Below are positions 10,067 to 59,272 of a DNA stretch of 64,000 nucleotides, in pieces. This DNA comes from a virus (Duplodnaviria > Caudoviricetes), in the IMG/VR virus record IMGVR_UViG_3300037247_000437, positions 1,297 to 65,296 of that record. One strand, given 5' to 3'. The notes beneath the pieces are model-generated. The model was not told the DNA's origin. It did not search any database and worked only from the letters and a program-made list of their open reading frames with translations. A program made the translations under genes and the position numbers. The first letter of the stretch is position 1; each line of letters opens with the position of its first letter.

Positions 10067-10141
10067 AATTGTATAATATCAAGTGACAGGCTGGTGAAAA
10101 GCAGCGTTTGACCTTGAGGCATTGTATTAATCTAAGAAATG
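10067..10141 (+). repeat. 75-bp perfect direct repeat, copy 1
   Basis: AATTGTATAATATCAAGTGACAGGCTGGTGAAAAGCAGCGTTTGACCTTGAGGCATTGTATTAATCTAAGAAATG, identical to 10323-10397. Confidence 0.97.
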
Positions 10142-10342: not shown

Positions 10343-10397
10343 CAGGCTGGTGAAAAGCAGCGTTTGACCTTGAGGCATTGTATTAATCTAAGAAATG
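10323..10397 (+). repeat. 75-bp perfect direct repeat, copy 2
   Basis: Identical to 10067-10141; supplies the stop of the HTH gene and the ATG of the next ORF. Confidence 0.97.
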
Positions 10398-21551: not shown

Positions 21552-22463
21552 ATGGATTTTATTACAGAAGATTTTATTAAAGAAAACAAATTAACCGAAG
21601 GACAGGTTGAGGTAATTAACAAGGTTGGTGATGGATATATTGCCGACGTAAAAAAGGAAGCGGACACAAAAGCAAGTGAAGCGGCCAACGAAAATGCAGA
21701 AAAGATTTTACACGGGGCAACTAAAAAACTTGAAGAACTAACAGGAATTAAGCACGAAAACGGAACTAAAATATCTGACTACTTACTCTTAAGTACAGAC
21801 GGCTATTTTAGCGGAACAAAGGCATCTTTAGAGAGGAAAGAAAAAGAGCTTGAAGAAAAGCTAAAAGCAGAACCCGGGGATCAAGCAATTAAGTTGGAAT
21901 TGATCGAATCCAAAAACGAAGTTGATAGACTTAAAAAAGTAGAGGCAGATCATTCGGAACTAGTAAAGGGTGACTATAAAAATCTTTACGAAACTGCTAA
22001 TAACGATTTAATTGAGACTAAAAAACAAGTAGCATTTGGAAATGTGAAGCCAAAATTCGCGGATAACATAAACGAATATGAAGCTAAAGCAAAATGGAAT
22101 GATTTTGTAAGTGGCACGCTAAAAAAATATAAAATTCATCTCGGTGAAGATCGAAAGGCAATTGCAATCGATCGTGAGAATGAATATAAAACAGTTGAAC
22201 TATCTCAATTGGTAAAAGAAAATGCAATAATTCAGGAATTAGTAAAAGGCAGACAGCAGACTGGGCCAGGCGTTAAACTAAAACTCCCAGTTAAAATTGA
22301 TGGCCTTGATTTTGATGTTCCAGAAAATGCAAATGCACAAGAACGACAGAAAGCTATAAAAGACTATATCACAGGAGTTCTAAAAATTCAGCAATTTGAT
22401 GTTAAATATTCTGAAAAATTCGCTGAATATAATAAGAAAATACTGGAAAAGATTCCAGCCTAA
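21552..22463 (+). CDS. Capsid scaffolding protein
   Basis: Charged coiled-coil protein immediately upstream of the capsid gene. Confidence 0.65.
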   Translation: MDFITEDFIKENKLTEGQVEVINKVGDGYIADVKKEADTKASEAANENAEKILHGATKKLEELTGIKHENGTKISDYLLLSTDGYFSGTKASLERKEKELEEKLKAEPGDQAIKLELIESKNEVDRLKKVEADHSELVKGDYKNLYETANNDLIETKKQVAFGNVKPKFADNINEYEAKAKWNDFVSGTLKKYKIHLGEDRKAIAIDRENEYKTVELSQLVKENAIIQELVKGRQQTGPGVKLKLPVKIDGLDFDVPENANAQERQKAIKDYITGVLKIQQFDVKYSEKFAEYNKKILEKIPA

Positions 22464-41047: not shown

Positions 41048-41212
41048 GTGGAAAATTTAGAATTAACATTATGGATTATTGGTTTAATTATTGGTATATC
41101 TGAAGTTGTATTAAGGGCCATTCCAGATGAGAAAATAAAAGGAATAATCGGATACGCTATCGAGGGATTAAAGTTCATTTCTGATTATTTCAACAGGAAA
41201 ACTCCTTATTAA
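41048..41212 (+). CDS. Small holin-like membrane protein (not in the ORF track)
   Basis: GTG start; ENLELTLWIIGLIIGISEVVLRAIPDEKIKGIIG...; stop overlaps the endolysin start. Confidence 0.55.
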   Translation: MENLELTLWIIGLIIGISEVVLRAIPDEKIKGIIGYAIEGLKFISDYFNRKTPY

Positions 41213-41631
41213 TGAGACAAATTTTAATTACCAGGATAAGACAAGACGACGACATTCAAACGTTAGGTCATTTGACAGTCTATGATGGGCTTAAAAAGAT
41301 TTTCGAGTGCAGTACATTAGAATTGCCATGGAAGGGTAACAAGACAGATGTAAGCTGCATTCCAGACGCTCATTACTGGGTTGATAAATATCTTTCACCA
41401 ACCAAAGGCCGGGGAATAGTATTTCAATTCAGCAATGTAAAAGGCAGATCAAACGTTCAGATTCATGTAGGTAATTTTAATCGAGACGTCTTAGGATGTG
41501 TACTTGTTGGCCAGGGATTCACCGACCTTGACAAAGACGGATACTTGGATGTATACTCAAGCGGTCGCACCATGGACAAACTTCTAGAGATAATGCCGGA
41601 TAAATTCAAACTTACAATAAACTGGTTATGA
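41212..41631 (+). CDS. DUF5675-family putative endolysin
   Basis: TLELPWKGN....SCIP, GRSNVQIHVGN....LGCVLVG. Confidence 0.8.
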   Translation: MRQILITRIRQDDDIQTLGHLTVYDGLKKIFECSTLELPWKGNKTDVSCIPDAHYWVDKYLSPTKGRGIVFQFSNVKGRSNVQIHVGNFNRDVLGCVLVGQGFTDLDKDGYLDVYSSGRTMDKLLEIMPDKFKLTINWL

Positions 41632-42050
41632 ATATCCTAAGTAAAATATTCTCAAGTGGTGCTAATGAAATAATAGGCACAGTGGGCGGTATAATAGACG
41701 ACCTGAGTACTTCTAAGGAAGAGAAGGCAGAACTAAAGAAAAGGCTATTCGATGCCATAAGCTCAAAGCTATTGGATCTTGCAGAAATGGGAAAACAAGT
41801 AATCATTGCAGAGTCAAGCGGCAATTGGCTGCAAAGATCATGGAGGCCAATTATAATGCTTTCATTTGGATTTATAATAATGTACTATTATTTTATTGCG
41901 CCTGTGTTTTCTACGCCAGGAATAGAGTTGCCTGATGAATTCTGGGCATTACTTAAAATTGGTTTAGGCGGTTACGTAGTTGGCAGATCGGTGGAAAAAG
42001 TTGCAAAGGAATTTTCCAAAAATCCAGATATGTTAAAAAGAAAAAAGTAA
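41628..42050 (+). CDS. 3TM holin (GTA holin-like)
   Basis: IIAESSGNWLQRSWRP, LLKIGLGGYVVGRSVEK. Confidence 0.85.
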   Translation: MNILSKIFSSGANEIIGTVGGIIDDLSTSKEEKAELKKRLFDAISSKLLDLAEMGKQVIIAESSGNWLQRSWRPIIMLSFGFIIMYYYFIAPVFSTPGIELPDEFWALLKIGLGGYVVGRSVEKVAKEFSKNPDMLKRKK

Positions 42051-42106
42051 TTTTGTTTATATGTATGTGATTGAAAGGGACGCTTTGGAACGGGGCGTCT
42101 TTTTTT
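42048..42106 (+). ncRNA. Mini transcription unit 1 (putative sRNA)
   Basis: TAATTTTG box (42048-55), short U/G-rich tract, hairpin GGGACGCTTT/GGGGCGTCTT plus T-run. Confidence 0.5.
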
Positions 42107-42122
42107 ATGTCCAATAATTCAC

Positions 42123-42191
42123 TACATTTGATTCTCATGGTTAGTTGGTTTAAATTGTTTGTGAGCGGTGCTGTATGGTGCCGCTTTTTTT
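42123..42191 (+). ncRNA. Mini transcription unit 2 (putative antisense sRNA)
   Basis: TACATTTG box; tract whose reverse complement is CACAAACAATTTAAACCAACTAACC-ATG-AGA; terminator AGCGGTGC/GTGCCGCT plus T-run. Confidence 0.6.
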
Positions 42192-42207
42192 ATTCTCTAT
42201 AATTAAT

Positions 42208-42313
42208 TAACTTCACGCTGACGGGCACTTCCGATTTTGGTCAACAAGATCGACGCATCGCGGAATACAGGAGGCCGGAGAACTCGATTATCAAGGATGG
42301 TCGAGTTTTTTTT
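42208..42313 (+). ncRNA. Mini transcription unit 3 (structured sRNA candidate)
   Basis: Variant box TAACTTCA; hairpin CGATTTTG/CAAGATCG, with TTCCG/CGGAA as an overlapping outer helix; terminator AACTCGATTA/TGGTCGAGTT plus T-run. Confidence 0.5.
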
Positions 42314-42403
42314 ATGCCAAATCGAAAATAAAAGTAAAACAATTACTATTTAATTAGTTTGCTAGTATGTAATTTACTACATTTGGTTAATCAAAAGGGA
42401 ATT

Positions 42404-42853
42404 ATGAAAAATCAAATCACAGAGATCGAACGAAATTTATCAGAAGGTTACACTTTAGTAAGTTCAACTGAACATAAAAGCAGCCAGTACTTTTACATAG
42501 CACGTCCGGACGGTTTAGAACTTAAGGCCAGAATAAGCGATCACGAAACAATGACAGGAAGATCTGCAAGTCATGTGAATATTTTAAGTGACAGATTTTT
42601 ACATATAGATTTTGATTTCGAAATGCAATATGATGCTGATGATTATGAAATCGAATTAACCAAAGAAGAGGCTGCGAAGCAAATATCAGAATATTACGGT
42701 GTTGAAGTAGATGAAAATAGCATTGAAGAATGTTCAGATTCAGATTTTCAACTTGATAATATGGAACTTGATTGGAAAGTTGGGGAGGCTATTTTAGGCA
42801 AGCATATAGCAGAATGCATAATGAATGTAACGAACGTGTGTTATACTTACTAA
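42404..42853 (+). CDS. Hypothetical acidic protein
   Basis: ORF behind a TACATTTG box (42378-85); contains a RISDH motif. Confidence 0.65.
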   Translation: MKNQITEIERNLSEGYTLVSSTEHKSSQYFYIARPDGLELKARISDHETMTGRSASHVNILSDRFLHIDFDFEMQYDADDYEIELTKEEAAKQISEYYGVEVDENSIEECSDSDFQLDNMELDWKVGEAILGKHIAECIMNVTNVCYTY

Positions 42854-42872
42854 TTCAAAAAAAATAATTAAA

Positions 42873-43982
42873 ATGAAAATAGCTCTGATAGATGGTGATT
42901 TATTAGGATTAGGCAACCATAGATTTCCTAATTTGGCACTCATGAAAATATCATCATTTAGGAAAGTAATGGGTGATAACGTAACGTTAATTTTAGATTA
43001 TAAGGAGTTAACCGGGGGGTTATTTGTTAAAAAATACGATAAAATATTTATATCAAAAGCCTTTACGTGGAGTTATGTTCCTGAAGAAATCACATCAATG
43101 AGTAATGTTGTAACAGGCGGGACTGGTTTTTTTTATGACAAAGCTATACCATTGAGTTATGAGATAGAGCATTCAATGCCAGACTATTCATTATATGATG
43201 AATTTGTTAGGGTAAAAGAGTTAGCGCGTAATAAAAAAACGTCGTTAAAACATTATAAGGAATATTCAGTAGGATATTCAACAAGGGGCTGTTTTCGGGG
43301 ATGTGGGTTTTGTGTTTTAAAAAATGAACGAAAGGTTAACCTTCATTCATCCTTATTTGAATTCACAGACCCAACTAGAAAAAAAATAGCGATGCTTGAT
43401 GATAATATATTGGGGTGTGCAAAATATCCTCAAATATTTGAGCAAATAAAAGATACTGGAAAGGCATTCAAGTACACACAGGCTATGGACATACGCCTAA
43501 TGACTGATAAAAAAACAAAGATTATACTCCCCCTGAGATACGATGGTGATTATTTCTTTGCCTTCGACCTGTGGGATCATAAAGAAAAAGTAGAAAAAGG
43601 TTTAAAATTATGGAGTGAAAGCTATTATAAGATAAAAAATTCAAAGGCTAAAAGTATTCATACACAGTTATATTGCATTTGCGCTTATGATGATGACAAT
43701 AAATATGACTTAAATTTCTTTATCAATGACATTATAATTCTATTCAATAGGATTGAAATAATATTTAAGTACAAAGCAAACCCGTATGTAATGTGTTTTG
43801 AAAAATGGAAAGAGTCTCCTTTCCCGTATCTATACACAGCATTAAGGCAGTGGAGCCTACGCCCAGCTAATTGTAAGAAATATAGTTTCAATGAATATAT
43901 TGAAGTATCAGGTAAAACAAAAGCAATGCTTCTTAGAGATAAATATCCTGAATTTAGAAAATTATGGGACGTAAAATTATAA
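42873..43982 (+). CDS. Radical SAM protein
   Basis: FPNLALMKIS N-terminus; TRGCFRGCGFC (CxxxCxxC); LDDNIL. Confidence 0.9.
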   Translation: MKIALIDGDLLGLGNHRFPNLALMKISSFRKVMGDNVTLILDYKELTGGLFVKKYDKIFISKAFTWSYVPEEITSMSNVVTGGTGFFYDKAIPLSYEIEHSMPDYSLYDEFVRVKELARNKKTSLKHYKEYSVGYSTRGCFRGCGFCVLKNERKVNLHSSLFEFTDPTRKKIAMLDDNILGCAKYPQIFEQIKDTGKAFKYTQAMDIRLMTDKKTKIILPLRYDGDYFFAFDLWDHKEKVEKGLKLWSESYYKIKNSKAKSIHTQLYCICAYDDDNKYDLNFFINDIIILFNRIEIIFKYKANPYVMCFEKWKESPFPYLYTALRQWSLRPANCKKYSFNEYIEVSGKTKAMLLRDKYPEFRKLWDVKL

Positions 43983-43992
43983 ACAATTAATC

Positions 43993-44181
43993 ATGATAGA
44001 ACTTATAGTACACCGTATCAAGATCATTTACGGAACAGAGGCGAAGTTTTGCGAGACGCAAAACCACGGAGATCCTTCCAACTTTCCAAAGCTCAAAAAG
44101 ACAGTGATTAATAAAACCGATTGGCTCAATAGGTTTTTAGATCCATTGGGATTAAAAGTTGAGATTACAGATAAAAAGTAG
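43993..44181 (+). CDS. Small putative DNA-binding (Cro-like) protein
   Basis: YGTEAKFCET...LNRFLDPLGLKVEI. Confidence 0.45.
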   Translation: MIELIVHRIKIIYGTEAKFCETQNHGDPSNFPKLKKTVINKTDWLNRFLDPLGLKVEITDKK

Positions 44182-44267
44182 TAGATTTGCATTTCATATT
44201 CATAATTTCGTGTTGATTTGATAGTTTAGATTGAAAAAAAAGCGCGCCGCTCGGTTCGCTTTTTTTT
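44182..44267 (+). ncRNA. Mini transcription unit 4 (putative antisense sRNA)
   Basis: TAGATTTG box; reverse complement CAATCTAAACTATCAAATCAACACGAAATT-ATG-AAT-ATG-AAA; A8-GCG..CGC-T8 terminator. Confidence 0.6.
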
Positions 44268-44283
44268 ATTTGGAATAATTCGC

Positions 44284-44359
44284 TACATTTGATTTGATTC
44301 GCGATTTGTTATATGGTAATGAGATCAATAAAAAAGCCTCTGTAGGATGAGGCTTTTTT
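44284..44359 (+). ncRNA. Mini transcription unit 5 (putative sRNA)
   Basis: TACATTTG box in the same 21-nt context as unit 2; U/G-rich tract; AAAAAAGCCTC/GAGGCTTTTTT terminator. Confidence 0.55.
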
Positions 44360-44360
44360 A

Positions 44361-44515
44361 TTTGCATAATTGAATTGTATTTTGTACCTTCATATTTCAT
44401 TTAGAAACTATACAGTTTAAACTAAATCAAAAGGTCATGTAAACTAAATGCATTTTATGTTAATCAATCGGGATTCCCGGTAAATCTAAAGCCTTGATTA
44501 TTCAGGGCTTTTTTT
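44361..44515 (+). ncRNA. Mini transcription unit 6 (structured sRNA candidate)
   Basis: TTTG-N20-TACCTTCA; ATTTAG/CTAAAT and AAACT/AGTTT stems; AAAGCCTTGA/TCAGGGCTTT terminator plus T-run. Confidence 0.45.
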
Positions 44516-44631
44516 ATTGGATCATACATATATTTTTTACGCCATCCGGAAACACCCTGAAAAATTTCAATATAAATGGATAAACTTGATTAAACATTAG
44601 GATAATCAAAAATAACCTATTATATTTGTTT

Positions 44632-45135
44632 ATGTCAAATGAGAAACGAAATATGGATATGATACTCGCGGAATTAAATACTACATTCAATTTAAACATC
44701 AAAAAAGATGTTAATAAAAGAAGTTCAGCAGGATCGTATAATAATAATACCGTATTTATTTCTAGTATTGAAGTATTAAAAAGCAAGTGTGGAGTCCAAT
44801 CAAACAGAGAAAATAAATACGGTCAAAAATTATATCCTAATACTATCTCTTTCGCCTCAGATGATTTGGAATCTATTACAATTGCACATGAATTCGGGCA
44901 TGCAATTGAGGATAATTATAGAAATGATGAAATGTTTATAAGTTGCAGAAATATTTGTGATGATTTAGCGCCTAAATATATTTCATTATACTCTGGCAAA
45001 GATAGCCCATTGAGTATTTATAGTGAGGCATTTGCAGAAACTTTTTGCTTATACATAATAAATCCAAGCAAATTACATCAAATTAACACTGAGTTATTCA
45101 GCGCCATTAATGAATTGTACGCATCATTTTTATAA
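44632..45135 (+). CDS. Zincin-like metallopeptidase
   Basis: TIAHEFGHAIE (HExxH) with downstream SEAFAE third ligand; leaderless-type start. Confidence 0.75.
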   Translation: MSNEKRNMDMILAELNTTFNLNIKKDVNKRSSAGSYNNNTVFISSIEVLKSKCGVQSNRENKYGQKLYPNTISFASDDLESITIAHEFGHAIEDNYRNDEMFISCRNICDDLAPKYISLYSGKDSPLSIYSEAFAETFCLYIINPSKLHQINTELFSAINELYASFL

Positions 45136-45478: not shown

Positions 45479-45987
45479 AGAATGACAATGATTTCACATT
45501 AAATGAAAAATATTGCACTAATCAAGGCAGTCATCATAATGTATGTAGTTCTGATTGTTATTCACAATTTGCAGCAACCAGAACGAGCGAAAATAGATTA
45601 AGCTTTGATAATAATAATTACCTCAATCCTCCGGTAATTTATAAAATTACAAACATCAAAACGGGGCAATGTTATATAGGTAAATCAATCAGGAGCTTTA
45701 CACTACGCTGGTGGGAGCATATCAAAGCCGGAAAGATGGCAGGAGAAAACACAGATCATTGTTTTTATAAGGCAATAAATCAAAGCAAATTAATCGATTG
45801 GACATACCAAGTTATTGAAGTTATTAATGAATATCCTGAAACCTGCGTTGATTATTTAAGCAAAGAGCGATATATCACAGAGCGCGAAAGTTATTGGATT
45901 GAAAAATATGATTCTGTAAATAATGGCTATAATTCAGTCATCAGCAATAAAATTAAAAAGGAAAAAACATTGCAAATTTTCAATTAA
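45463..45987 (+). pseudogene. GIY-YIG endonuclease lacking a canonical start (5'-truncated)
   Basis: Frame open from 45463: ...PVIYKITNIKTGQCYIGKS...RWWEH...ERESYWIEKYDSVNNGYN; the first ATG (45736) is downstream of the GIY-YIG motif. Confidence 0.7.
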
Positions 45988-46478
45988 ATAAATTCAACCC
46001 GTCAATCTAAATAATTCACAGTATAATATAAAGACAATGTTAGACGAAAAAGGATTTGTATTTATTGATGATAATAATCGTCCGTTTTGGGTGGCTATGA
46101 GATTTGATAAGCCAACACTTTTGTATTGGCATGCAGATAAAAAATGGGTTAGGCTTAGGGAGGTTACAATGATTGAAATATGGCAAATGAACGACCAAGC
46201 AATCCCGGGACATCTTGCAGAAAAATACCATGAGCAACATAAAAAACAATTAATATAAACTAAAAGAAATTATGATAGCAGTATTTGGAGACAATCGAGA
46301 ATTTAGAATGATCAGGTGTTATCCTAGGAAACAATTCAATATAATAAGAGGTGTAGAAAGTATATCTGGCGTAAGGTGGGAGGGTGTAATATTTTTACAC
46401 GGATGGAAACAAATAACGGCATTATGCGAAGCTAGGGATTTGCTTGAAGTTAGACAGCCAGAGTTATTCAAATGACCT

Positions 46479-48011: not shown

Positions 48012-49929
48012 TTGACAGTATAATATAAACTAAATAAATTATGAGTGAAGAGAATTCCTGGGATAACCTGAAAGACCTGACTAAGCAGGAGATAATTGAT
48101 TTTTTGAAAACACAATTTCATTATAGGCTACCTTCAAAAAGAGAAGTAAAGTCATTTAAGTGGTCAAAGGATGCTGCTAAACTGCAAATAGAAATGGATG
48201 ATCATTTATCAAATCCGGTTGACCCTGACTTAATAAAAAAAAGGGATGAATACGCAAGATCATTCAATGCATCAAAAGACACGTCTGAGAGGGTTAGATT
48301 ACTGGATAAGATTAATCCAATAGATGATCTTATATCAAGAAATCACGAGAAATACAAAGCCATCGCACGGAAGCAGCAAAAGAATGATAAATATTATAAT
48401 TCGTTTAATCAATAATTCAATTTAAACTAAAGAATGCTTCTATTAACCTTGTTGAGTTTAAAGTAAAATAAACAGTAAAAATATAAAACTAAACTAAATT
48501 ATGAATATCTACGAATTTATTACACCAAGCGATCCGATTACATTCAAAACAAATGATGACAAAATTGCATTTATATGTGCTCTTTTCTTAGGCAATGGCA
48601 AGGCAGGATGTAAACGATTTGATGATTCTGGTAATGAAATATCAATTCCTACAATGTTAATGTTTTCAAAAGATCCTGATTCAGAAATAAAGAATTACAT
48701 AGGCGGTAATGCATCAGAGTATTTTGATTCAAAAAAGCACTTAATAAAAGCTGCATTTGAAAGCTTTTCATATGGAAATATAGAGGATAGGCGCTCATAT
48801 GACGATGCTATTATTGCTATTACTGATACTAATAAATTGAAAAACTTTAAAGCAAAGCATGAAGATAGAAATAGGAGTTCACTGAGTAAGTGGGTAAAAT
48901 CTGCATGGAAATTAGCTGAAGGCATTAATTAAATCTAAACTAAAGAAATTATGAATATCAGTGTATTAGAAAAAATATTAACATCAACCAGCGAATATTG
49001 GATTTTGAGAAAGGAAAATAAAGATAATTATAGCAAAGAACTTAGAGCGTACATTATAATGGTCGCGATCCCTACTAAAATTCAAGTCGATAAAGACCGG
49101 AAATTAATTACTTTGTGTGATCTTGAAGAATTAGAGGCTGTGAGTCTTGACGGAAATGTTTACCTAAATGAATCATATGCACCATTCCAGCTAGGGGTAA
49201 ATTTACATCACGTCACAGAAGTATTCCCTATCCCATCTCGGCAAAGGGAATTCATGATAAAAGCTCTTGAGTTAAAAAGTCATGATATTTATGATTACAA
49301 AAAATTGATTGATGAAGTATGTATCGATCAAGAAGAGAAATAATTGACAGTATAATCTAAACTAAACAAATTATGAAAACTCAAATTGAAAAAGCATATT
49401 ATTGGGTTAAATTTTACAATCACGACAAAAAACTAATTATGCTATTCAATGGCAAAAACTTTGAAGGTTTTAAAAGCGATCAATTCATAGGTGATGAGAT
49501 TGAAAGCTATAAAATAATTAATTCAATCTAAACTAAAGACAATGACTATAGAAGAAGAGGCTAAAGATATTTTAGATTGCATATCAGTTTTTGACCCTGA
49601 TGAAACATTGAAAAACAAGGGCAGATATTTTGATGTGATCCAAAATGATGTAAAAAAGCTATTGAAAAGAATCAAAGAAACTAAATAGTGATTTAAACTA
49701 AACTAAGTTATGAGATACAGAATTAAAATTACAACATTCAAAAACAAGCGTAAAGAATTCAGGGCACAAAAGAAAGTATTATTTGGATGGGCTGACCTTG
49801 ACTATTGCGGGGTAGTTTATCATTCAATTACTTGTCGTACGGATACAAGGACGGAGGCGTTAAATAGAATTTATTTACACTATGAAGGGAACACAGCGGA
49901 GCACACCATAGAATTTGAGTACATTACTA

Positions 49930-50076: not shown

Positions 50077-50678
50077 CACGAAATTAACAATCGGAAACAT
50101 GAAAAAATTAGCATACAAAATAGGCAAAACAGAAAAAGAGGTTAAAGCACTTTATTTATCAGCTATTGATACTTTCATTCATTTTGGAGCAACAGAAGAA
50201 GCGGCCAGAGAAATGGCAAAAGAAACTTTCAGAGATACATTAGGACTTTAAACAACAATCACATCCACCAGCCCGGCAAGGTAACTACCTCCGGGATTAA
50301 GGTGGTAAAAATTCACTATAAAAATTAGCATTATGAACGTAAGGCAAAAATTAGAAAGCATGTTGGTAAATAAAGGCATGTTTAGCTCACAAGCAAATGA
50401 GGTTATGGAATTGGCAATACCTATATTAAGAAACATTATTGAAGGTTACGGCATTAGATTTGAAAGTGATAGCGATGGGTACCCAAATGTGATATATAAT
50501 GTATTGATGATGCAAATTAAGCCTATTGCGCTGAAGTGGATTGATGAAAATAAACCTATGGCATGGAATAGAGAAATGTTCACATAGTAAAAAATAATAC
50601 CTGCTAATTCTGGCAGATATCCCAGCCTGTTACCTTTCGAGGTACCGGATTGTGGCGGTACAGACTAAATAGAGAATT

Positions 50679-51266
50679 ATGAATATTGAAATTAATGTAC
50701 CTGATGGAATTTCAGGAGAATGGAAAGTTGAAAGTTTTACAGTATCAAAAGATGAATCTAAAATGATGCGAGTAAGATCAATATTTACAGGTGTCCGAGG
50801 TTCTTTGCCGGCAGGAAATTATAAAAAGCTTACCCGAAATGGGACTATGGTTATGAGCAATACGCCTGATGAAATAAGAGATTTTAGTTCTTTTGCTTAT
50901 CGTGCTAAGGGTCATATTCTAATAAACGGATTAGGTATTGGTGTACTTGTTAAAGCATTATTGGGAAAAGAAGATGTTTTGAGTATAGAAATTATTGAAA
51001 AATCAAAGGACGTAATCAAATTAAGCGGCCCAACATATTCTCAAGATAAACGGGTTACCATAATTAATGCAGATGCGTTTGATTATAAGTCACCTTTAGG
51101 AGTAAGATATAATTATGTGTGGCATGACATATGGGACGATATCACTTCGGATAATTTACCCGAAATGCACAAGCTCCACAGAAAATATGGGAGAAAATCA
51201 GATAATCAAGAAAGCTGGTGCCGCTATCAGTGTGAGCAACAAAAGAGGCAAGCAAGATATTATTAA
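50679..51266 (+). CDS. Class I SAM-dependent methyltransferase/spermidine-synthase-like protein
   Basis: ILINGLGIG motif I, IIEKSKDVI, ADAF, WHDIW. Confidence 0.8.
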   Translation: MNIEINVPDGISGEWKVESFTVSKDESKMMRVRSIFTGVRGSLPAGNYKKLTRNGTMVMSNTPDEIRDFSSFAYRAKGHILINGLGIGVLVKALLGKEDVLSIEIIEKSKDVIKLSGPTYSQDKRVTIINADAFDYKSPLGVRYNYVWHDIWDDITSDNLPEMHKLHRKYGRKSDNQESWCRYQCEQQKRQARYY

Positions 51267-59167: not shown

Positions 59168-59272
59168 TCCGGTGTAGCTCAATTGGTAGAGCACGAGGAA
59201 GCCAGGTTTCGACACCTGTACTATGGCTGGTCCATTCTGCGGTATACGGGTTCGATTCCCGTCGCTGGATCA
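59168..59272 (+). tRNA. tRNA-like RNA with a non-canonical, expanded anticodon arm (no assignable anticodon)
   Basis: Acceptor TCCGGTG/CGCTGGA, TA, D-arm GCTC-AATTGGTA-GAGC, T-arm ACGGG-TTCGATT-CCCGT; 53 nt between D and T arms instead of about 23. Confidence 0.75.

Follow-up and report, generated by a model that had tools for sequence, protein, structure and literature searches.

In the enterobacterial base-pairing sRNAs that derive from 3′ untranslated regions (UTRs), those of the CpxQ, SroC and DapZ type, the bases that pair are found after the stop codon of the mRNA and before its terminator. The icaR mRNA of Staphylococcus aureus has a 3′ UTR that mirrors its ribosome-binding region, and the two pair within one mRNA. 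To our knowledge, the phylum Bacteroidota is without Hfq. Among phage regulators, the c4 RNA uses two separate complementary stretches. In P1 and P7, c4 is described as an antisense RNA that the phage makes and that targets a message of the same phage in trans, pairing around the ribosome binding site and blocking translation (PMC12197685). For Bacteroides thetaiotaomicron, the sRNAs GibS and FopS are described as transcribed from a sigma-ABfr promoter, with a single-stranded seed at the 5′ end and a Rho-independent terminator behind it, and as repressing through pairing with start regions; a FopS-like sequence in a phage has also been reported (PMC11697453). Start-region pairing is already known as a mode of control, then: P1 c4 exerts it on a single operon, and Bacteroides has sRNAs of its own that use it.

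Here, we describe a phage locus, 44196-44235 (unit B), which is a coding-strand mirror of a leader, devoid of a Shine-Dalgarno sequence, and of the start codon that are common to a group of small genes at 46.3-50.7 kb. Our preferred interpretation is that the locus is part of a trans-acting anti-leader RNA that represses translation and works like P1 c4 or Bacteroides FopS, a proposal whose chances of being right or wrong we consider evenly balanced. Like c4, the predicted RNA would be made by the phage and would act in trans on messages of the same phage through short complementary stretches. Unlike c4, which acts on one antirepressor operon, it would reach several genes by way of their shared leader; the host phylum is another one, there is no Shine-Dalgarno sequence and no immunity role is evident. 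The mirror resembles the RNAs of the CpxQ, SroC and DapZ type in sharing its 3′ end with a coding transcript, that of a conserved 62-aa gene (ORF62). Its targets differ from that of icaR in lying on other messages, 4.3-6.5 kb downstream, and whereas GibS and FopS are host genes directed at polysaccharide-utilisation mRNAs, both RNA and targets are phage-borne here.

Over the analysed DNA, only a tRNA reached the Rfam gathering score, all other matches being sub-threshold and terminator-driven. The c4 model gave no match up to E = 5 in 41900-44700, and none of the Bacteroides sRNA models (GibS/FopS/BTnc) matched, the best being BTnc231 at 24.8 bits against a threshold of 80.4. By these model scores, the predicted anti-leader RNA is a member of neither the c4 nor the Bacteroides sRNA families of Rfam. 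The tRNA call itself, at 59168-59270 (42 bits, 103 bases), may represent a tRNA interrupted by an insert or only a look-alike; ARAGORN found no tRNA in the window. In the literature, as covered by titles and abstract openings, no description of leader-directed RNA control in Bacteroidota phages was found.

Genome and Expression Signals

The window, that is, the whole stretch of 64,000 bases that was analysed, runs from base 1297 to base 65296 of a virus record that is 65,296 bp long, bears direct terminal repeats and is rated complete. All of it is phage, with no host DNA. The G+C content is 31-39% across the window, 32 of 32 bins have more A than T and more G than C on the + strand, and a simple gene call placed every one of the 129 ORFs of at least 40 aa on the + strand. 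Two reverse-strand ORFs near the units described below were rejected as genes; one, of 61 aa, crosses a terminator and the end of the holin gene, and the other, of 54 aa, is antisense to ORF62. No Shine-Dalgarno motif was found before the ATGs of the 129 called ORFs, and the phage's signals are, judged from their motifs, of the Bacteroidota type.

In Flavobacterium, TAnnTTTG is described as the -7 element of sigma-A promoters, at -12 to -5 with the start site 4-5 nt behind it (PMC9723704, PMC6847099). For promoters of F. johnsoniae, the consensus is given as TAHHTTTG, and the occurrence of G at -10 as 'virtually zero'; the same paper describes translation initiation in the Bacteroidota as dependent on an unpaired A-rich start region (PMC6847099). 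A motif scan of the window found five TAnnTTTG boxes (10809, 16385, 44621, 50058 and 58243), each 11-12 bases before an ATG. The messages at these five boxes may be leaderless or nearly so, or the true start codons may lie further downstream. Three of the five are followed by the same ATGTCAAA. An identical 40-base stretch (10099-10138 and 10355-10394) precedes the ATGs of the neighbouring small genes 10139 and 10395, which points to tandem duplication. Terminators are unevenly spread, with 6 of about 14 on the + strand crowded into the gaps 42051-42403 and 43983-44631, the gaps that hold both anti-leader units.

A Leader Shared by Small Genes

The motif TAAACTAAA occurs in 11 forward copies and no reverse copy in the window. 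Seven of them precede the ATG of a small gene by 11-16 bases (46272, 48041, 48501, 48951, 49373, 49542 and 49710), three are gene-less (44418, 44440 and 48423) and the remaining copy is at 22274. With gene 50679, which has a looser form of the leader, the leader set used here comprises eight TAAACTAAA-type leaders of small genes at 46.3-50.7 kb. Directly before three leaders, at 46018, 48015 and 49347, stands a conserved ACAGTATAAT, twice as TTGACAGTATAAT. Pfam gave no function for the proteins of 48951, 49373, 49542 and 49710, nor did PHROGs and Atlas for that of 48951.

Relatives help to define what kind of signal the leader is. In a distant relative whose terminase is 61% identical (G001), AAACTA or AACTAAA stands at most 30 bases before 12 of 65 ORFs; the same AAACTAA motif there makes the leader a lineage-wide signal. 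The alternative in the earlier note is that the leaders and a host target would merely share a strong-leader consensus. A second relative, with a radical-SAM gene that is 68% identical (L011), carries a variant of its own, AAACGCTAAAACAA; since a host-type TATATTTG box precedes it, the leader would lie inside the transcript. Together, these two observations argue for an RNA-level translation signal of the phage lineage, and not only a cassette boundary. The exact leader pattern was not found in IMG/VR. In L011, a promoter-plus-leader module of about 95 bases is present as a near-exact repeat (55-150 and 1534-1627) before the two genes that flank the radical-SAM gene, an arrangement that fits modular shuffling of regulatory cassettes.

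A Mirror of the Leader Behind ORF62

The complementarity of this locus was reported in an earlier note on the sequence, and direct reading bears it out. Bases 44196-44209 (ATATTCATAATTTC) are the exact reverse complement of 48945-48958, across the ATG at 48951, and 44222-44232 are that of AATCTAAACTA at 48932, 49354 and 49525. The extension of this second block to 14 bases and the shorter matches across the ATGs of two further genes, of 13 bases each, are likewise present (Table 1). In the whole record, the 11-mer AATCTAAACTA occurs three times forward and once in reverse, at the mirror.

Table 1 Coordinates of the mirror, its predicted targets and the neighbouring features (positions in the window)
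Feature	Position	Strand	Details
Anti-start block 1	44196..44209	+	complement of GAAATTATGAATAT; covers AUG of ORF 48951; 13 bases also match 48501 and 50679
Linker	44210..44221	+	12 bases; target has 2 bases there
Anti-leader block 2	44222..44235	+	complement of (TTC)AATCTAAACTA at 48932, 49354, 49525, 49522-35
ORF62, conserved 62-aa gene	43993..44181	+	stop codon 44179-44181; mirror in its 3′ untranslated stretch
Putative sigma-A type promoter	44159..44189	+	TTG, 20 bases, TAGATTTG (-7 box 44182-44189); motif scan
Terminator T1	44234..44267	.	eight A, short interrupted G+C stem, eight T; first terminator after ORF62
Main predicted target: leader and start of ORF 48951-49343 (130 aa)	48932..48958	+	25 of 27 bases paired, two blocks, -23.7 kcal/mol
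Leader of ORF 49542	49522..49535	+	14-base match to block 2, -19.7
Leader of ORF 49373	49353..49364	+	12 pairs to block 2 including one G-U; 49354-49364 exact (11 bases); -18.3
Start region of ORF 48501	48496..48508	+	13-base match to block 1, -15.8
Start region of ORF 50679 (methyltransferase-like, phrog_15480)	50674..50686	+	13-base match to block 1, -19.4
Unit A, second anti-leader unit	42123..42192	+	canonical TACATTTG box 42123-30, mirror 42134-42157 (CTCATGGTTAGTTGGTTTAAATTG), strong terminator 42163-42191
Best predicted target of unit A	49689..49715	+	23 pairs including 4 G-U, 2 bulges, -20.3
Unit C	44272-44362 (44296-44332 tested)		strong terminator; promoter region (AATAATTC-CTACATTTGATT) identical to that of unit A at 20 of 21 bases
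Unit D	44366-44516	+	two forward gene-less leaders (TAAACTAAAT twice) at 44418..44448; terminator 44488-44516
Lysis region	41212-42050		DUF5675 protein, then three-helix holin (PF11351, 47.6 bits)
Unannotated 32-aa hydrophobic ORF (MKNIALIKAVIIMYVVLIV...)	45503-45601		T-rich codons give high background in the anti-leader scan

The window contains 29 exact inverted matches of at least 14 bases, and 20 first-order Markov simulations gave a mean of 21.25 (range 12-42); a lone 14-base inverted match is at chance level. A stricter rule asked for collinear blocks of 14 and 11 bases, both inside a stretch of 45 bases and both matching the same 27-base leader. By this rule, 44196-44209 and 44222-44232 against 48945-48958 and 48932-48942 form the only double hit in the window. 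A looser 9 + 9 rule brings the count back to chance level (28 against a mean of 22.3). In a gapped DNA alignment of the reversed window with the eight leaders, the mirror site came first with a score of 37, the next scoring 27; the margin is small, since the maxima of 10 simulations were 27-35. What is observed is a non-random complementarity between mirror and leaders, with a defined strand, a terminator behind it and a high genome-wide rank.

The transcription context places the mirror on an expected RNA. ORF62 has six homologues of 60-65 aa (67-87% identity), which indicates a real gene; no Pfam or PHROG family was found for it. From its stop codon through the mirror to T1, the order is the layout of a 3′ UTR-derived sRNA. 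Since the mirror lies on the coding strand between that stop codon and the first terminator, a + strand RNA that includes it is expected, at least as the 3′ end of the mRNA. The ORF62 message probably starts at the TACATTTG box at 42378. T1 was called on the - strand by the terminator search and could act on both strands. In addition, the candidate TAGATTTG box could perhaps start a separate RNA of about 75 nt near 44194-44196, of which a predicted fold leaves the first 21 bases unpaired. This box carries G at -10, departing from the TAHHTTTG consensus of F. johnsoniae; because of this G, we count a separate promoter for the mirror as unproven. Folding of 44194-44270 predicts block 1 to be single-stranded and block 2 to lie partly in a weak 7-bp hairpin. 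The target leaders lie beyond three terminators and a new promoter, so any pairing would be in trans.

Predicted Pairing with Start Regions

When 44182-44236 was compared with the start regions of all 129 ORFs, 48951 was the best predicted target (-27.2), and 50679, 49542 and 49373 took ranks 4, 6 and 12. On its own, an energy of -27.2 is only modestly unusual: among 270 shuffles, 5 did as well, and so did 9 of 310 random windows. Some start regions that have no such leader also score strongly against the mirror, for example 61583 at -22.6 and 17520 at -20.1. The expectation in the earlier note that the leaders should outrank other start regions holds for 44194-44236, with the eight leaders at ranks 1, 4, 5, 7, 17, 20, 28 and 77 of 129 (Mann-Whitney p = 2e-4); this test is partly circular because the leader set is defined by a motif that is present in the mirror. 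The mean energy of unit B over the leaders was reached by none of 60 dinucleotide shuffles. As for the suggestion that one RNA could serve several genes through their common leader, the preference for leaders favours it, but the full match exists for ORF 48951 only and the other matches are partial.

In the least biased test, every 36-base window of the + strand, 5331 in all, was scored against the eight leaders. The highest-ranking positions were 42133 (-16.6), 44197 (-15.8) and 42121, which overlaps 42133, against a genome mean of -6.4 (sd 1.64). The next locus, at -15.0, is a T-rich stretch inside the 32-aa hydrophobic ORF, which shows that composition alone can come close.

Neighbouring Units

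The first-ranked window belongs to a second unit (unit A), which sits behind the holin gene and the holin's terminator. The mirror in this unit spans the AUG of ORF 49710 and the leader before it, with further matches to 48041, 49373 and 5790. Within the paired stretches, all four base differences amount to G-U pairs. Unit A prefers leaders over other start regions (p = 3.5e-4), and none of 60 shuffles reached its observed mean. The stretch that follows it, 42193-42320, is non-coding, G+C-richer, about 128 bases long and closed by its own terminator (T-run at 42306); no ORF, Rfam match or leader complementarity was found in it.

Two further units lie behind the mirror. Unit C showed no preference for leaders among the start regions (p = 0.78). 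In unit D, one of the two leaders is followed by ATG-TAA and the other by an 11-codon frame, and both can pair with block 2. The pairing of unit D with the anti-leader RNA (-17.9) was equalled by 15 of 300 shuffles, and it is conceivable that unit D serves as a decoy for that RNA. Overall, units A and B pair only weakly with unit D and with the holin start region, 15 to 56 of 300 shuffles being equal. For unit B and the holin start region, the value is -15.7, equalled by 16 of 300 shuffles.

Relatives and Look-Alike Units

The element is kept in neither of the two closest relatives compared, L011 and L020, which counts against the anti-leader reading. In L011, both the mirror and ORF62 are absent after the related radical-SAM gene, and leader-bearing genes follow straight on. 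L020 has an ORF62 that is 67% identical and no mirror, its next gene beginning 7 bases past the ORF62 stop. ORF62 is absent from G001 and G002, and five homologues (79-87% identity) lie on contigs of 730-1228 bases. No relatives of ORF62 were found in IMG/VR. GenBank phages gave no DNA or ORF62 match, only three chance-like 46-base matches in Listeria phages. For the radical-SAM and 343-aa neighbours, the search for near relatives gave only 31-49% identity, in other gene orders.

Units that look alike can be found elsewhere. G001 shares only three proteins with the phage. Of the 2177 windows scored there, the one that ranks second as an anti-leader lies between a TACATTTG box and a terminator, reads ...TTTTTCATAGGATTAGTGAGGGTTTAG and has the build of unit A. 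A pattern scan of IMG/VR for units like unit A listed at least 118 stretches; among the 80 of these that were examined, five passed a filter for a terminator or GTTTA, with a full build in L072 and a partial one in L110. L075 and L082 were rejected as units of this kind, their real leaders being on the other strand. L072, which shares no protein with the phage, is a further full look-alike and as such anecdotal. Set against the start regions of their own genomes, the look-alike units do not beat shuffles, the best match being equalled by 22 of 100 in G001 and by 16 of 100 in L072. The mirrored ATGs were also considered as gene starts and rejected, as the frames that they open, of 12 (unit B), 61 (unit A), 23 (G001) and 6 aa (L072), have nothing in common.

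A search of sequencing runs for DNA of the phage returned no RNA run, and its sole match was a marine-sediment DNA metagenome, possibly the source. The contigs of that run comprise one of full length and short fragments of relatives, with no fragment over the mirror or its main target. In one low-depth contig, 46274 and 49670 are joined directly and the 3395 bases between them are missing; both places adjoin leaders, and the shorter side is 20 bases. The contig may be a cassette-deletion variant or another organism.

Alternative Explanations

The strongest competitor of the anti-leader interpretation is a recombination scar, in which an inverted fragment of the leader, left by cassette shuffling, is passively transcribed and has no regulatory role. 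We regard this as possible, though on the unlikely side. The gene-less leader copies make it credible, since they indicate that leader fragments do get scattered, and this counts against the anti-leader reading as well. The repeated promoter-leader module in L011, the contig that joins two leader-flanked positions and the absence of the element from L011 and L020 would all fit such a history. However, neutral decay would be expected to scatter mismatches, and what is seen is two perfect blocks around an unrelated linker in unit B and differences that are all G-U compatible in unit A. This pattern fits selection on RNA pairing better than the decay of a duplicate. A scar would also have to account for an independent second unit of the same build, for the framing of both units by a promoter-like box and a terminator, and for their occupying the top two ranks of the 5331 windows.

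A quite improbable alternative is that the leader motif acts at the level of DNA, as a phage promoter or a bidirectional protein site, and that its inverted copies start or regulate antisense transcripts, which would run into ORF62 and the radical-SAM gene (unit B) and into the holin gene (unit A). In favour of this, the motif is exact as DNA, three of its copies carry the additional conserved ACAGTATAAT, and the reverse copies face the holin (PF11351) and the ORF62 operon. Such a role would not explain the fixed distance of 11-16 bases to the ATG, nor why the mirror extends over the ATG and five coding bases, a promoter having no need of these. It also conflicts with the position of the leader in L011, within the transcript, with that of T1 directly upstream of the reverse copy, and with the lack of a TAnnTTTG box nearby on the - strand.

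Chance, aided by base composition, is given a similarly low probability. A non-coding RNA rich in U and G readily pairs with A-rich leaders, single 14-mers are at chance level, and runs of 12-16 bases are common once G-U pairs are allowed; the shuffles that reach the best energy (5 of 270) and the coding T-rich window at -15.0 point the same way. Against this stand the double hit, which arose in 0 of 40 simulations, the mean over the leaders, which 0 of 60 composition-preserving shuffles reached, and the alignment score of the mirror site, the highest in the window. For unit B, the simulations and shuffles largely refute the chance reading. Finally, a real small gene on the reverse strand that uses the same leader is very improbable, for although the order of leader and ATG is intact on the - strand and the ORF list includes 44028-44192 (54 aa) and 41953-42138 (61 aa) on that strand, the ATG behind the mirrored leader opens only 12 codons at unit B and all other genes are on the + strand.

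A Model for Leader-Directed Control

Under the anti-leader interpretation, the mirror would be made as the 3′ end of the ORF62 operon mRNA and perhaps also as the RNA of about 75 nt from the weak sigma-A-like box. The partner of its two blocks would be the leader of ORF 48951 together with the AUG, over 25 bases; four to six sibling leaders would be paired less completely. Bacteroidota ribosomes need an unstructured, A-rich region, and with this region masked by the RNA the leader-bearing genes would be translated less. The second unit, 42134-42192, would do likewise for leaders of the 49710/48041 type. Trans-acting repression is plausible because an unpaired A-rich start region is needed in this phylum and because host sRNAs of the same shape, FopS and GibS, repress in this way. 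That the RNA accumulates, pairs in the cell, represses and has any role in timing is what we infer. The direction and timing of the effect, and with them the idea of a temporal switch that the earlier note put forward, we only infer.

A broader version of the model can be offered tentatively, and we doubt that it will hold in full. Bacteroidota phages may tag sets of early genes with a private leader and control these sets by anti-leader RNAs, here units A and B, with G-U wobble covering the variants of the leader and unit D (44418-44448) perhaps acting as a decoy. This would be an RNA-only circuit for the timing of early-gene translation that recurs across unrelated Bacteroidota phages.

If the anti-leader RNA is real, one or two tiny RNAs directed against a shared translation leader would be enough for the phage to silence a whole group of its genes. 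The control of initiation in a phylum that works without Shine-Dalgarno pairing would become directly testable, and the leader and its mirror would provide a compact pair of tag and anti-tag for synthetic biology in Bacteroidota.
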